This document shows positions 9,374-16,747 of a stretch of DNA of 64,000 bases, piece by piece. Made by a program: the position numbers and the translations under genes. Below the pieces are notes generated by a model. The model did no database searches. It saw nothing but the letters and a program-made list of their open reading frames with translations, and was not told the DNA's origin. Each line of letters begins with the position of its first letter. Positions within the stretch are counted from its first letter, which is position 1. The stretch comes from Escherichia coli (GTDB lineage: Bacteria > Pseudomonadota > Gammaproteobacteria > Enterobacterales > Enterobacteriaceae): the NCBI RefSeq assembly GCF_013315695.1, contig NZ_CP054353.1; one strand, 5' to 3'.

Positions 9374-10423
9374 TCAAACGATTAAATCCTGAACTTCCCT
9401 GACTGTCTGCTCAAAACGTCCGGTCTCCAGTTCAACGCCAATCGCACGACGCCCAAGCGCCAGTGCCGCTTTTACCGTTGAACCTGAGCCCATAAAAAAA
9501 TCTGCAACCAGGTCACCCGGACGACTGCTTGCGCTGATTATCTGCTGCAGCATTTCTGCCGGTTTTTCGCACGGATGTTTCCCGGGATAGAACTGCACCG
9601 GTTTATGTGTCCACACATCCGTGTACGGCACCTGCGCCGTCACACCAAAATACCGCCGCAGATGCTTATATTCACTCTGCAGCTCCACATACTGCCGGTT
9701 CAGTGACGTATACGTATCCACCAGCTGGTGGTGGGGCTTTTCCAGTTCACCGCGCTGATGTTTCTCTTCTGCCACCCGGGCAAACAGCGACTGTAATTTC
9801 AGATAATCGCTTTCGTTCGGTAGCTGCCACTGACTGGCACTGAACCAGTGCGACACCATGTTTTTCTTTCCTGTGGCATCTGCAATCTGTTTTGCCGTTA
9901 TCCCCAGGGCAGCGCGCGCATCACGAAAGTAAGAAATCAGCGGGGCCATCACATGCTGTTTCAGTGCACTGCCCTTCGCCGCATACCCGGCATCTTTCGG
10001 ACGATACGGCCCCTGATAATGTTCCGCGAACAGAATGCGCTCTGTGGCGGGGAAATACGCCCGCAGGCTTTCCTTGTTGCATCCGTTCCAGCGTCCGGAC
10101 GGCTTCGCCCAGATAATATGGTTCAGCACACTGAAGCGTTCACGCATCATGATTTCGATATCAGATGCCAGGCGATGACCACAGAACAGGTAAAGACTTC
10201 CGACAGGTTTCAGCACCCGCCAGAACTGCGCCAGACACTGGTCCAGCCACTTCAGGTAATCATCGTCGCCCTTCCACTGGTTATCCCAGCCCTCAGGCTT
10301 CACTTTAAAGTACGGCGGGTCCGTGACTATCAGGTCAACAGAATTTTCGGGTAACGACCGGATAAATTCCAGGCAGTCGGCGTTGATTAACTCACAACTG
10401 GATATTTTTACAGTATTAAGCAT
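9374..10423 (-). CDS. orphan DNA methyltransferase (beta-class N6-adenine/N4-cytosine type)
   Basis: 349-aa product with catalytic DPPY motif near the N-terminus (LIVTDPPYF) and AdoMet motif FFMGSGST near the C-terminus; no adjacent restriction endonuclease gene. Confidence 0.8.
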   Translation of the reverse strand: MLNTVKISSCELINADCLEFIRSLPENSVDLIVTDPPYFKVKPEGWDNQWKGDDDYLKWLDQCLAQFWRVLKPVGSLYLFCGHRLASDIEIMMRERFSVLNHIIWAKPSGRWNGCNKESLRAYFPATERILFAEHYQGPYRPKDAGYAAKGSALKQHVMAPLISYFRDARAALGITAKQIADATGKKNMVSHWFSASQWQLPNESDYLKLQSLFARVAEEKHQRGELEKPHHQLVDTYTSLNRQYVELQSEYKHLRRYFGVTAQVPYTDVWTHKPVQFYPGKHPCEKPAEMLQQIISASSRPGDLVADFFMGSGSTVKAALALGRRAIGVELETGRFEQTVREVQDLIV

Positions 10424-10561
10424 GGATCATTAAGCCTGTCTCTGATAGGCTCATTCTGCTTTTGCGCAAAGCAGTGGGCCTGAGGTTTGCTTGTGAACCC
10501 AACGCATGAGCAGATGGCTGGTGGGTGCCCCTAACACCCACCAGCCGCCCATTTACCACAA

Positions 10562-10587
10562 ATAAAAAAGCCTTCAGGACTGAAGGC
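10562..10587 (-). terminator. intrinsic terminator after the 65-aa ORF
   Basis: Minus-strand hairpin GCCTTCAG-TC-CTGAAGGC followed by TTTTTTATTT; stem overlaps the last codons of the upstream ORF. Confidence 0.55.
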
Positions 10588-10771
10588 GTCTGTAACAACC
10601 GAACTGATAGTCTGCCAGACCCGCCATAACCAGCTGGGTCAGTATTAACTGGCAGCGTTCGCGTGAAAGGTAAGTATTCTGCGCTATCTCCCCGACTGTC
10701 GCCGGTTCGGTAACGCTTAATTCATTAAACACCACTCTGGCGGTTTCTGTCATATCCTGCTGTTTTAGCAT
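10574..10771 (-). CDS. small winged-helix-like protein (65 aa)
   Basis: ATG at 10771 preceded by AAGGAAAAAG; product MLKQQDMTETARVVFNELSVTEPATVGEIAQNTYLSRERCQLILTQLVMAGLADY...; ORF-track ORF extends to 10858. Confidence 0.45.
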   Translation of the reverse strand: MLKQQDMTETARVVFNELSVTEPATVGEIAQNTYLSRERCQLILTQLVMAGLADYQFGCYRRLQS

Positions 10772-10902
10772 GTCTTTTTCCTTTTTCCGGTTAACGTGAC
10801 ATACCAATAACTCTTGTCGAAAAAGCCAGCAAGCTGAAAGACCCGTATTCGCAACCACCAGCGTGTTTACTGTACTGACGCGATTTTGGGCATAAAAAAA
10901 AA

Positions 10903-13432: not shown

Positions 13433-13466
13433 TGCCAGAAAAAAACAAAACCCGCCGAAGCGGGTT
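13433..13466 (-). terminator. intrinsic terminator downstream of hok
   Basis: Minus-strand hairpin AACCCGC-UUCG-GCGGGUU followed by a U-rich tract. Confidence 0.6.
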
Positions 13467-13534: not shown

Positions 13535-13690
13535 TTACTCCTCAGGTTCGTAAGCTGTGAAGACAGCGACCTCCGTCTGGCCGGTTCGGAGTCGTACCTC
13601 GCAGAGGTCTTTCCTCGTTACCAGTGCCGTCACTATGACGGTTAAACAGATGACGATCAGGGCGATTAACATCGCCTTTTGCTGCTTCAT
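13535..13690 (-). CDS. hok: Hok/Gef-family type I toxin (HokD-like)
   Basis: 51-aa product MKQQKAMLIALIVICLTVIVTALVTRKDLCEVRLRTGQTEVAVFTAYEPEE; the ORF-track ORF carries a 19-codon in-frame upstream extension. Confidence 0.85.
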   Translation of the reverse strand: MKQQKAMLIALIVICLTVIVTALVTRKDLCEVRLRTGQTEVAVFTAYEPEE

Positions 13691-13927
13691 AGCCTGCTTC
13701 CCCTTGCCTTTCGGCACGTAAGAGGCTAACCTACATTTGTGAGACATAGATTGGGCCTCAGATTAATGTTAAGCGTCTTGCAGGACGCGAAATGTTAACT
13801 GGGGCTTTTCTCTATCTGCCTTTCAGTGTTCATGCCTGAGACAGATAGCCTCAAGCACCCGCAGCCATTCTACTTAACTCACGTCACCTCGCCAATATGA
13901 AATCAATCAGAAAGGTGATCCATAAAA

Positions 13928-14614
13928 TCACTCCTTCTCTTCTTTTCCGTAGTGGAGTTGGCCAATTTTGATAAGAGGGCGTCCCTGAGATTTGCGGTGT
14001 AGATTGGTATCGCGCAGAGAATACACACAGCCACAATATTCCTGCTGATAGAATTTTTCGCGCTTGCTGATTTCAATCATACGGGACGAGCCGCCCTGCT
14101 TGCGCCAGTTATAATCCCAGTACACCATACCCGGATAATGCGCAACAGCTCGCCGCCCACACTCGTTAACCTGCTGCATATTTTTCCAGCGTGAAATGCC
14201 CAGTGAACTGCTGATCACACTGAAACCATTTTCAGCAGCGTACAACGCTGTCCGCTCAAAACGCATGTCAAAACACATGGTACAACGGATCCCCCTCTCA
14301 GGCTCCCATTCCATTCCTTTGGCACGTTCAAACCAGTTGTCGGTGTCGTAATCAGCATCGATAAACGGCACGCCGTGTTGTTCAGCAAAGCGAATATTTT
14401 CATCCTTACGAATTAAATACTCTTTCTGAGGATGAATGTTCGGGTTGTAGAAAAAGATGGTGTAGTCGATTCCCGAGGCCTGAAGCGCCTCCATCACTTC
14501 ACCGGAACATGGAGCACAGCAAGAGTGCAGTAGTAGTTTGTTTGCCCCGTTTGGGAGCTCCAATTTAGGCCGTTTGAAATCAGCAATAGTCATAAATATT
14601 TTTATTGGGGTCAT
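13928..14614 (-). CDS. QueH-like (DUF208) epoxyqueuosine reductase homologue
   Basis: 228-aa product with N-terminal [11 protein letters not shown] motif and further Cys motifs (CTMCF, YCGCVY) characteristic of the QueH/DUF208 family; true start may be the Met 7 codons downstream. Confidence 0.6.
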
Positions 14615-14767: not shown

Positions 14768-15208
14768 CTAGTAACGTCTAAAATACCTAACATTTCCTTG
14801 ATAAAATGCCAGTACACGCTGCATAGCTTCGCTCTTCCGGCACTCGCGACAGATTATATTCAGGCGCCTGTCGTAGCGGCGTATTTCGCCGTCTGGTAAC
14901 GACCAGATAAGGTCCGGATCAACCACTGCAGGTTTCTTCACCTTTGCCCTTGAGAGTTTTTTGCGAGCATTTTGCCAGTCCTTACGCGCCTGTTCAGACG
15001 GGAATAACCCGTAACCAGAGTTGTATACATCGCCACTGGCAACCAGCTCTCTGGCGAGAACACTCATCAGATATCTTGTCGCACCTGTCCTGGCTTCCAG
15101 TTGCCGCAACGTCTCGCGACCGCTCAGACGTACAAGTTCAACAACCTGCCCTTTAATTTTTTCCCGCTCTTCTTGTGTAAATACTTTTGCCATAAGCGCC
15201 TCCGGCAA
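14768..15208 (-). CDS. hypothetical phage protein (146 aa)
   Basis: ORF in the nin-like region; C-terminal CRECRK motif; no confident domain call. Confidence 0.5.
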   Translation of the reverse strand: MPEALMAKVFTQEEREKIKGQVVELVRLSGRETLRQLEARTGATRYLMSVLARELVASGDVYNSGYGLFPSEQARKDWQNARKKLSRAKVKKPAVVDPDLIWSLPDGEIRRYDRRLNIICRECRKSEAMQRVLAFYQGNVRYFRRY

Positions 15209-15979
15209 TCACTTTTCCGATACAACACGGCGGGAAGAATCAGTAATCTGTCGAACAATATCCCGGTGCTTGTTCAGCTCCCGCAGCGCGGCGCAGACTC
15301 GCTCCCACTTCTGAACATCACTTTTCGCCCTGCGCAGCGCCAGGTTTGCCCTGCGAAGGGACGGAAAAATCAGCTCATCTGCTTGCGTTTCGGTAAACGA
15401 TGGCAACGGCTGCACAATGTCCGCCACAGTTTCTGTTTTAATTTCTTCCTGTGTTGCGGCTTCCCGGACTGGTAACGCAGCACCTGCTGGCTGAGGAAAG
15501 GCCTTACCATCACTTTCCGTTACCAGCGCGGCTTTCGGCTCTGCTGGTAAATTATCGCCCGGCATGCAGTAACGAAATTTACCGTTCTGATTAACGCGTG
15601 CCAGCCGCCCCGTTGCGGTTACCACCGCCAGCGTGGAAGCAACCTTGCGAGTACTGACACCGAACTTACCCGCCAGTTCCTCACACGTTTTAGCCCCATC
15701 CTGACCGATAAACTCAATCATCATGTCTGCGGTAACTTTTTGTTCGACCTCCCCGGTCAGCATATCCTGTGCTTCAGATTTTACTGGCCGCTCTTCGGTT
15801 ACCCGGGATTCACCTTCGCCAGCCAGAAACCAGGTGTGACCAGTTTTATCAACGACGCCTTTTCTTTTGAGTTCCCACAGCTCGTTGACAGCCTCTTCAC
15901 GACTGATTCCAAGGCGAGCTGCCACCACATGTGAAGAGGCTTTTTTCAGTGCTTTCAGTGCGTCAGATACGGTTTCCAT
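15209..15979 (-). CDS. hypothetical phage protein (256 aa) with N-terminal winged-helix-like repeats
   Basis: ORF directly downstream of the DnaC-like gene; two similar N-terminal segments (SHVVAARLGISREEAVNELWELKRKG / KTCEELAGKFGVSTRKVASTLAVV). Confidence 0.5.
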   Translation of the reverse strand: METVSDALKALKKASSHVVAARLGISREEAVNELWELKRKGVVDKTGHTWFLAGEGESRVTEERPVKSEAQDMLTGEVEQKVTADMMIEFIGQDGAKTCEELAGKFGVSTRKVASTLAVVTATGRLARVNQNGKFRYCMPGDNLPAEPKAALVTESDGKAFPQPAGAALPVREAATQEEIKTETVADIVQPLPSFTETQADELIFPSLRRANLALRRAKSDVQKWERVCAALRELNKHRDIVRQITDSSRRVVSEK

Positions 15980-16000
15980 TAAAATTTCCTCCGGACAAAA

Positions 16001-16747
16001 TTACTTCACAACCCTCATATTGCTGACATTTGGACGCCAGCTATCCCAGTTAAACGTCACCCATCGACCACCGTTCATGGTCATGCGGTCCATAATCCTC
16101 TCACCAAGAAGCGTACTCATTGCGGCATGATTCAGGTTTGTTAACATCCCGACACTGCACAGTGATGCTGTCCGGCGATCAATTATCTGGTGCAATACCA
16201 CCTGCTCGTTTTTCGTCTCCCGCTGAACGCCTATTTCATCCAGGACCAGCAAATCAACCCCGCAAAGCTCCTGTAAAAATTTTTCCCCGGATTTGCCGTT
16301 GTCGTAGCTGTCATGCAACACGCTCATGACGTCAGACACGGTGACGATAATCACGCTGCGCCCCTTCACCATCAGCCGGTTGCCCATCGCCGCTGCAAGG
16401 TGATTTTTCCCGGTGCCGGTTTTACCGCTGAACACAAAATTCGTGCACCCGGTCATCAGTTCGTCAGCTATGGATTTGGCCTGGCTCAGCGCGTATTTTT
16501 GCCCGTCGTTCTGCACCTGATAATTTGCAAACGAGCATTTGCTGTGCAGAGGCTGGATGCCCGAACGATTCAGGATTTTTTCCACCCGCAACTGGCGATT
16601 CTGGCGGTTAATCTCCTCGCTGCGTTTTCGTCCTTCAGCAAGTTGCCATTCCCGCCACTCCTCCACCGTCCGGTACGGTGGAACCGACCCCTGTGGTGCA
16701 AGTCTGCGAATACGTTCAAGACCCCCAACTGCCGCAATGTTTTTCAT
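16001..16747 (-). CDS. phage replication protein, DnaC-like helicase loader (YdaV-like)
   Basis: 248-aa product with Walker A GKTGTGKNHLAAAMG and Walker B LLVLDEIG. Confidence 0.85.
   Translation of the reverse strand: MKNIAAVGGLERIRRLAPQGSVPPYRTVEEWREWQLAEGRKRSEEINRQNRQLRVEKILNRSGIQPLHSKCSFANYQVQNDGQKYALSQAKSIADELMTGCTNFVFSGKTGTGKNHLAAAMGNRLMVKGRSVIIVTVSDVMSVLHDSYDNGKSGEKFLQELCGVDLLVLDEIGVQRETKNEQVVLHQIIDRRTASLCSVGMLTNLNHAAMSTLLGERIMDRMTMNGGRWVTFNWDSWRPNVSNMRVVK

Follow-up and report, generated by a model that had tools for sequence, protein, structure and literature searches.

What do the two genes between the helicase-loader gene and the QueH gene of this Escherichia coli prophage encode, and do they belong with the replication genes in front of them or with the variable genes behind? 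An earlier note on this DNA, made from the letters alone, could name neither protein and took the pair for accessory genes in a nin-type hotspot. The window, by which we mean the whole 64,000-nucleotide stretch that was analysed, does hold two minus-strand ORFs within positions 14768 to 15979, confirmed at the coordinates where that note had read them. Contrary to it, both products belong to named families. The first is a DUF1627 protein of the YdaW family (PHROG 630), and the second is a DUF977 protein of the family also called LygF or Ren-like (PHROG 142).

The first product, of 256 aa, scores 328 bits against Pfam DUF1627 (PF07789; cut-off 28.1, E = 9.8e-99) over model positions 1-155 of 155, matches PHROG 630 with E = 9e-133 over positions 1-252 of 253, and is identical to the RefSeq protein WP_000450998.1. 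The second scores 97.4 bits against Pfam DUF977 (PF06163; cut-off 22.1, E = 9e-28) over model positions 1-133 of 134, and its RefSeq entry is WP_001151165.1. The dN/dS ratio, 0.13-0.25 for the DUF977 gene and 0.29-0.54 for the DUF1627 gene, half of which encodes disordered linker, shows purifying selection on both. Because the Pfam scores are far above the cut-offs, and because of these dN/dS values, we regard the pair as real genes and not chance ORFs. The length of the second gene needs a correction. Taking the first TTG (15208) as the start gives an ORF at 14768-15208 that encodes 146 aa, which is the length first proposed, but the ATG at 15193 has GGAGG 5 nt ahead of it and the identical gene in RefSeq is annotated at 141 aa. 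For these two reasons we prefer 141 aa, and the C-terminal CRECRK motif pointed out together with the longer form is retained at residues 115-120 of the shorter one. The features of the locus are collected in Table 1.

Table 1. Coordinates of the two genes, their domains and their neighbours in the window
Feature	Coordinates	Strand	Evidence or remark
DUF1627 / YdaW-family gene, 256 aa	15209..15979	-	ORF; stop TGA 15209-15211
DUF977 / LygF / Ren-like gene, 141 aa	14768..15193	-	Pfam, PHROG, RefSeq, hhalign
Shine-Dalgarno GGAGG, DUF1627 gene	15988..15992	-	Sequence read; in the 21-nt gap after the DnaC-like gene
Shine-Dalgarno GGAGG, DUF977 gene	15199..15203	-	Sequence read; in the 15 nt between the DUF1627 stop and ATG 15193
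DnaC/IstB-like helicase-loader gene (YdaV homologue), directly upstream	16001..16747	-	Pfam IstB_IS21, E = 7e-19
QueH gene, variable slot after the pair	13928..14614 (RefSeq start: 13928-14593)	-	Pfam QueH, E = 1e-65
DUF1627 protein, winged helix 1, residues 1-52	15824..15979	-	AlphaFold pLDDT 95-97, H-H-H-E-E pattern
DUF1627 protein, winged helix 2, residues 84-138	15566..15730	-	AlphaFold pLDDT 95-97
DUF1627 protein, acidic Pro/Ala-rich disordered linker, residues 139-207, ending in IPxF...LIxP	15359..15565	-	pLDDT 52-57
DUF1627 protein, basic C-terminal helical hairpin, residues 208-256	15212..15358	-	AlphaFold helices 208-237 and 239-255, pLDDT 89-96
DUF977 protein, winged helix, residues 1-66	14996..15193	-	AlphaFold pLDDT 90-94
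DUF977 protein, conserved C-terminal Ren motif EIRRYDRRLNIICRECRKSEAMQRVLAFYQG, residues 103-133	14795..14887	-	BLASTP to lambda Ren
DUF977 protein, CRECRK, residues 115-120	14834-14851	-	Part of the Ren motif

Along the minus strand come first the cro-like and YdaT/cII-like genes, then the O-like initiator and DnaC/IstB-like loader genes, then the 256-aa gene and the 141-aa gene; a gap of 153 nt separates the last of these from QueH, behind which lie hok/sok, a 90-aa ORF, DUF968, RusA and Q. Gaps in the replication block are 6-21 nt. The DUF1627 and DUF977 genes each have their own GGAGG and lie 15-21 nt from the preceding stop, an arrangement by which induction or infection would yield the pair along with the replication proteins. 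The early rightward replication operon of the prophage ends with these two, which occupy the position of lambda ren; in lambda, the pR replication operon ends in the order O, P, ren. One difference is that lambda ren directly follows the loader gene, whereas here the DUF977 gene follows the DUF1627 gene. A simple promoter and terminator scan of the adjacent non-coding DNA gives no more than the shuffled expectation. For the gap between DUF977 and QueH, the RNA fold has a z-score of -0.08 and Rfam gave sok alone, and we dropped the idea of a regulatory RNA or terminator there. We also dropped that of a programmed read-through fusion: the two ORFs share one frame, with a single TGA between them, but just 3 of 7 divergent phage arrangements keep that frame relation. 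Many complete E. coli genomes have this 1.3 kb at 100% identity, and the copy in strain CE10 lies within a lambdoid prophage adjoining ompW.

In lambdoid phages the stretch from the replication genes to Q is mosaic, with QueH and hok/sok in it and, in related phages, Paa/AdfO, and on that ground the pair might be horizontally acquired cargo ("moron") genes in a nin-region hotspot, much as the earlier note had it. A synteny sample of 80 viral contigs whose DUF1627 gene is at least 91% identical speaks against this. The DUF977 gene is found at exactly the same junction spacing in 76 of the 80, with alleles that are 58-100% identical, and QueH is present in only about 20 of the 80 contigs that share the pair. 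In O157-type ompW prophages (PPompW), the adhesin gene paa/adfO occupies the downstream slot instead. Since the downstream gene varies and the pair is kept, the cargo slot comes after the pair, and in this prophage it is QueH that fills it. Neither protein has a match to the Nin family (NinB-NinI) in Pfam, PHROG or NCBIfam. Related copies are also abundant, with DUF1627 matches in 2766 of 5426 complete E. coli genomes (51%; near full-length in 1569, and up to 9 copies per genome) and DUF977 matches in 4039 (74%; near full-length in 3933, and up to 5 copies per genome). With these counts, no separate promoter or terminator signals, and starts so close behind the preceding genes, an origin as cargo is highly improbable. 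The pair is a conserved end-piece of early replication/recombination operons, and the hotspot description applies to the slot downstream of it. By its own account, the earlier note would be contradicted by assignment to common families with known housekeeping roles in phage replication; common the families are, but no known housekeeping role comes with the names.

Upstream of the pair, the 80 contigs have a DnaC-like gene in 46 cases and a lambda-P-like helicase loader in 33. More distant contexts were sampled one by one for nine DUF1627 homologues at 22-34% identity. Three of these lie behind lambda-P or DnaT-type replication modules, four overlap the 3' end of ExoVIII/RecE-family genes by 11 nt in P2-like early operons, and for the other two the flanking sequence is too short to judge. 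In phage PhiR46_1, a DUF977 homologue begins on the last base of the ExoVIII gene.

Such a location, right behind the initiator and the loader with spacing of the translational-coupling type, invites the view that the two are accessory DNA-binding components of phage replication, which would bind the origin, the forks or the replisome and tune initiation or a later mode. The winged-helix folds described below would suit it, as would the basic character of the DUF1627 hairpin and of the DUF977 protein as a whole, and the early replication/recombination operons in which P2-like phages carry the distant homologues. But the pair is retained while the loader switches between unrelated families, and in phage HannyBb a Ren-like gene lies directly behind an O-like gene, with no loader. 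That the pair keeps its slot with a DnaC-like or a lambda-P-like loader, and that DUF1627 homologues alone also follow DnaT-type modules, argues against a replication role specific to the loader. The alleles of DUF1627 and DUF977 re-assort freely in phage records and related loci, and each gene goes without its partner in about half of the phage records (both genes in 12, DUF1627 alone in 12 and DUF977 alone in 12). As to Ren itself, lambda ren is dispensable for growth. Lambda-fragment experiments in the literature led to the conclusion that neither replicative killing nor P-lethality is due to Ren. Weighing both sides, we consider a part in replication somewhat unlikely.

The P2-like contexts suggest something else, namely that DUF1627 is the partner of a RecE-type exonuclease, an annealing or targeting subunit that replaces RecT, the copy behind the loader having been relocated. 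The 11-nt overlap with the ExoVIII stop in the four contexts is at the site of recT in Rac, and Pfam flags no RecT, Erf or Rad52-type gene in those four loci. We find this very unlikely, however. The AlphaFold model shows winged helices and a hairpin alone, with no annealase fold; the DUF1627 gene of lambdoid prophages is in another operon, far from recE; and K-12 Rac has both recE and ydaW, with recT immediately upstream of recE as well.

The DUF1627 family is small, with 154 cluster representatives at 50% identity among 1.84 billion proteins. An alignment of 39 representatives at 21-65% identity spans the full 256-aa length, and the AlphaFold model was built on this alignment. Model and alignment agree on a common architecture, in which two winged helices, each followed by a linker, precede the C-terminal helices. 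The first winged helix is the best-conserved part of the family (L8, K13, A14, A20, L34 and W50), and a disordered stretch of residues ~55-83 leads from it to the second. The two align with each other by hhalign at 93% (E = 3e-7), so that the pair of N-terminal winged-helix-like repeats proposed in the earlier note is upheld, with pLDDT of about 95-97 and with Foldseek, which matches the model to generic tandem winged-helix proteins and to MarR, ArsR and Z-alpha folds. The second winged helix also aligns with that of Ren/DUF977 (hhalign 91%), and residues 84-137 match PHROG 142 with E = 3e-6. Relatedness between the DUF1627 and DUF977 proteins is limited to the winged helices. A C-terminal homology of the two, picked out by eye as "DLIxP...EIRR" plus a helix, was discarded, as hhalign on the sub-alignments gave <1% and E = 0.1-0.3. 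Two gene calls in ENA, of 403 and 372 aa, run DUF1627 and DUF977 together as one fused gene.

The middle of the protein had been described as acidic and rich in Pro and Ala, and its composition agrees: the 68 residues from 140 to 207 hold 12 D+E versus 4 K+R, with 9 Pro and 11 Ala, and are predicted to be disordered. The linker varies across the family in both length and sequence, save for the IPSF/LIxP stretch. Reading the IPxF motif as a clamp-binding or SSB-tail element was a judgement by eye that we rejected, the Gln not being conserved and the motif being internal. The C-terminal hairpin has 14 K+R in 49 residues, with the consensus EIRRTKxKLxxLE and a nearly invariant R216. The nearest named relative is YdaW of K-12 Rac (b1361, 186 aa), which is 55% identical over residues 1-154, covering both winged helices, and is likewise encoded directly behind a DnaC-like gene, ydaV. 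It differs in having neither the conserved IPxF motif nor the basic C-terminal hairpin, and the gene next to it in Rac is rzpR, with no DUF977 gene after ydaW. The 256-aa gene is thus the intact, full-length form of the truncated K-12 Rac ydaW.

The 141-aa protein leads to lambda Ren (NP_040633, 96 aa). PHROG 142, annotated "Ren-like exclusion protein", is matched by the window protein with E = 5e-46 and by lambda Ren with E = 1.6e-41. An hhalign profile-profile comparison of the DUF977 and Ren alignments gives a probability of 95.8% (E = 7e-9), aligning residues 29-132 with Ren 19-93, and this match covers both the winged helix and the C-terminal motif. The stretch around CRECRK is 60% identical to Ren residues 73-92, NLVFKECRQSAAMKRVLAVY, by BLASTP (E = 5e-7). 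Common to the two proteins are an N-terminal winged helix and the motif N-x-x-[FC]-x-E-C-R-x-S-x-x-M-x-R-V-L-x-x-Y, in which N112, E117, C118, S121, M124, R126, L128 and Y131 are invariant across the DUF977 and Ren sequences. C118 is the sole invariant Cys. A zinc site at CRECRK was therefore set aside, as the protein has just two Cys and both Ren and some DUF977 alleles have Phe in place of C115. Unlike Ren, the window protein has an N-terminal extension and an insertion of ~29 residues (roughly 77-105) between the wing and the C-terminal motif, and the Pfam DUF977 model matches the window protein and not lambda Ren. By sequence and by gene position it belongs to the Ren family, as a longer relative of lambda Ren.

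An earlier paper recognised DUF977 as a winged helix. AlphaFold gives the 141-aa protein a confident winged helix at 7-66, a helix at 67-82 and then a disordered stretch, with short low-confidence helices at the C-terminal motif, and Foldseek finds MarR, ArsR, GntR and AspA folds for it. Within the winged helix there is a variable cassette, residues 29-52, in which only 8 of 24 positions are identical between alleles, whereas the flanks are 82-97% identical. Phage records label the protein variously LygF, YdaW-family or Ren-like. LygF, a name from the Sdf region of Salmonella Enteritidis, denotes the same family, and the 141-aa protein is 70-95% identical to lygF-annotated genes in Rac-SA53, mEp460 and the Shigella Stx phages 75/02 and POCJ13. 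No functional work on LygF was found in the literature searched.

The folds by themselves would allow ordinary MarR/ArsR-type transcription factors that act on phage or host promoters, for example those of the downstream cargo or of late functions. The best structural matches include MarR, ArsR, GntR and IclR, and YdaW has been listed among the uncharacterised E. coli transcription factors as of MarR type. The variable helices of the DUF977 alleles could alter operator specificity. The likeness to MarR/ArsR factors, and to tandem winged-helix proteins such as the SelB C-terminus, ScpB and DDRGK1, extends to the domain fold and the tandem arrangement. The window proteins differ in their long disordered linkers, which make up half of the DUF1627 protein, in their family-specific C-terminal elements, and in the MarR dimerisation scaffold, whose N- and C-terminal helices are absent from both AlphaFold models. 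Among Pfam models for MarR, ArsR and other regulators, none reaches its curated cut-off for either protein, the best being HTH_Crp_2 at 21 versus 27 bits. The adjacent non-coding DNA has nothing notable to the simple promoter/terminator scan or to RNA folding, and the genes downstream differ among phages that share the pair. We judge a regulator of this type unlikely.

Other searches give little beyond the fold. Foldseek against the PDB and viral models returns generic winged-helix matches alone, and a sequence search of solved structures finds nothing below E = 0.07. Neither protein has an enzymatic domain. In PADLOC, whose models do not take in anti-defence proteins, DUF977 has no match, and DUF1627 has weak matches alone, to the Cas-associated CARF3, Csa3 and CasR (E = 8e-4 or worse), all within the winged helices.

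The explanation that we favor, at less than even confidence and by analogy, is that the pair are expressed early and work against the abortive-infection or exclusion systems of the host. Ren reportedly protects lambda from Rex exclusion. The homology of the 141-aa protein to Ren, its place in the ren slot and the escape from RexAB exclusion attributed to Ren together point this way. No rexAB is seen near the repressor gene of this prophage, so that the documented partner of Ren is not present in cis, and this counts against counter-defence.

The second line of evidence comes from a genome-wide overexpression screen (TIC/TAC), in which five prophage genes, ydaW among them, blocked RcaT, the toxin of retron-Sen2. 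As a hit for the K-12 form of DUF1627, with its two winged helices, this also argues for counter-defence. The same work identified RecE as a trigger of the retron and described racC-recE as a linked pair of blocker and trigger. RacC offers a functional analogy alone, being a small prophage protein encoded beside the RecE gene that blocks RcaT and that came from the same screen as ydaW; its gene, unlike those of the pair, lies upstream of recE in a leftward operon. The ydaW hit was obtained by plasmid overexpression of a truncated protein, and the list of hits included chaperones and unrelated genes, which is a point on the opposing side.

Third, the linkage of homologues to RecE-type genes and the independence of the slot from the type of loader are consistent with counter-defence. 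The swapped cassette at residues 29-52 of DUF977 likewise fits a specificity determinant under conflict. Two observations weigh the other way: the allele swap may be ordinary lambdoid mosaicism, and winged helices are classic DNA-binding domains, with whose fold a regulator role is equally compatible.

If counter-defence is the function, the DUF1627 and DUF977 proteins would act as early adaptors or decoys. They would shield the phage from abortive-infection or exclusion systems, belonging to the host or to co-resident prophages, that are set off by the replication and recombination activities of the phage. To do so they might bind the defence protein or toxin itself, or mask the DNA-protein intermediate that it senses. 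The pair would be dispensable for replication itself.

RefSeq already lists both proteins under DUF names, and the finding adds little that is new. Its useful outcome is that scattered labels are merged, YdaW being DUF1627 while LygF, DUF977 and "Ren-like" are one family, and that the pair is placed in the slot of lambda ren irrespective of the replication module. A broader proposal, which we hold doubtful, is that DUF1627/YdaW and DUF977/Ren-like proteins are a widespread class of phage counter-defence blockers, hard-wired to the activities that trip abortive-infection sensors, namely replication initiation and loading and RecE-type exonuclease. A general trigger-blocker module would then consist of a loader or RecE with a winged-helix blocker behind it, and the defence protein to be neutralised would depend on the swapped cassette. 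Should the anti-exclusion reading be true, these abundant genes may help to explain the spread of lambdoid and Stx phages among strains in which Rex-like, retron or other abortive-infection systems are already present.

The DUF977 alleles that were compared differ sharply in one part of the protein, the helix 2-3 region of its winged helix, where 8 of the 24 residues are identical while the flanks stay at 82-97%. The variable residues are 25-48 in the numbering of the 146-aa ORF, which correspond to 29-52 in that of the allele comparison. The pattern is a cassette-like swap of the putative recognition helix.

The DUF977 ORF is in frame with the TGA stop codon of the neighboring DUF1627 gene (15193-15211, minus strand), and 2 ENA gene calls fuse both domains, P0002 at 403 aa and P0004 at 372 aa. 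Only 3 of the 7 divergent phage arrangements keep the two in the same frame, and a conserved read-through from DUF1627 into DUF977 is therefore unlikely.

Outside the lambdoid phages, in P2-like and other phages, the genes of distant DUF1627 homologues share 11 nt with the 3′ end of an ExoVIII/RecE-family gene; in one locus a DUF977 homologue starts on the last base of such a gene. This is the position that recT occupies in the Rac prophage. Two of these loci, L084 and L086, also have a Dam-type methylase gene a few genes further downstream. A DUF1627 gene is also found at 10071-10806 of phage record PP818812.1 ("Actinobacillus phage vB_Apl-pPE4"), with 78% protein and 84% DNA identity to the E. 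coli copy; the Actinobacillus host label is surprising for an E. coli-type lambdoid module.

Coordinates of the features discussed, in the window unless a locus is named
Feature	Location	Strand	Evidence or relation
Variable cassette, DUF977 winged helix	15050-15121	-	Allele comparison
QueH gene	13928-14614	-	Pfam E 1e-65
hok/sok type I toxin-antitoxin locus, complete	13535-13860	-	
sok RNA	13685-13860		Rfam RF01794, 120 bits
hokD	13535-13690		
Intrinsic-terminator-like hairpin	13449-13466		
paa/adfO (phage PPompW_132418 locus)	L092 5606-6352		After DUF1627 gene
ExoVIII/RecE-family gene + distant DUF1627 homologue	L084 2777-5756		11-nt overlap
Same	L086 3026-5768		11-nt overlap
Same	L094 1401-4278		11-nt overlap
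Same	L093 2-1544		11-nt overlap
ExoVIII/RecE-family gene + DUF977 homologue	L091 3402-4420		DUF977 start on last base of ExoVIII/RecE-family gene

The slot directly after the pair holds a QueH gene, found in only about 20 of the 80 related loci (viral contigs with a DUF1627 gene at least 91% identical), and this gene is variable cargo. O157-type prophages at the same ompW site have the adhesin gene paa/adfO after DUF1627 in place of DUF977 and QueH, which shows that virulence or metabolic cargo is exchanged downstream of the replication operon. QueH is a cobalamin-independent epoxyqueuosine reductase. Because QueG, E. coli's native enzyme for this step, is B12-dependent, the prophage-encoded QueH could make a difference to queuosine maturation in tRNA under B12 limitation.
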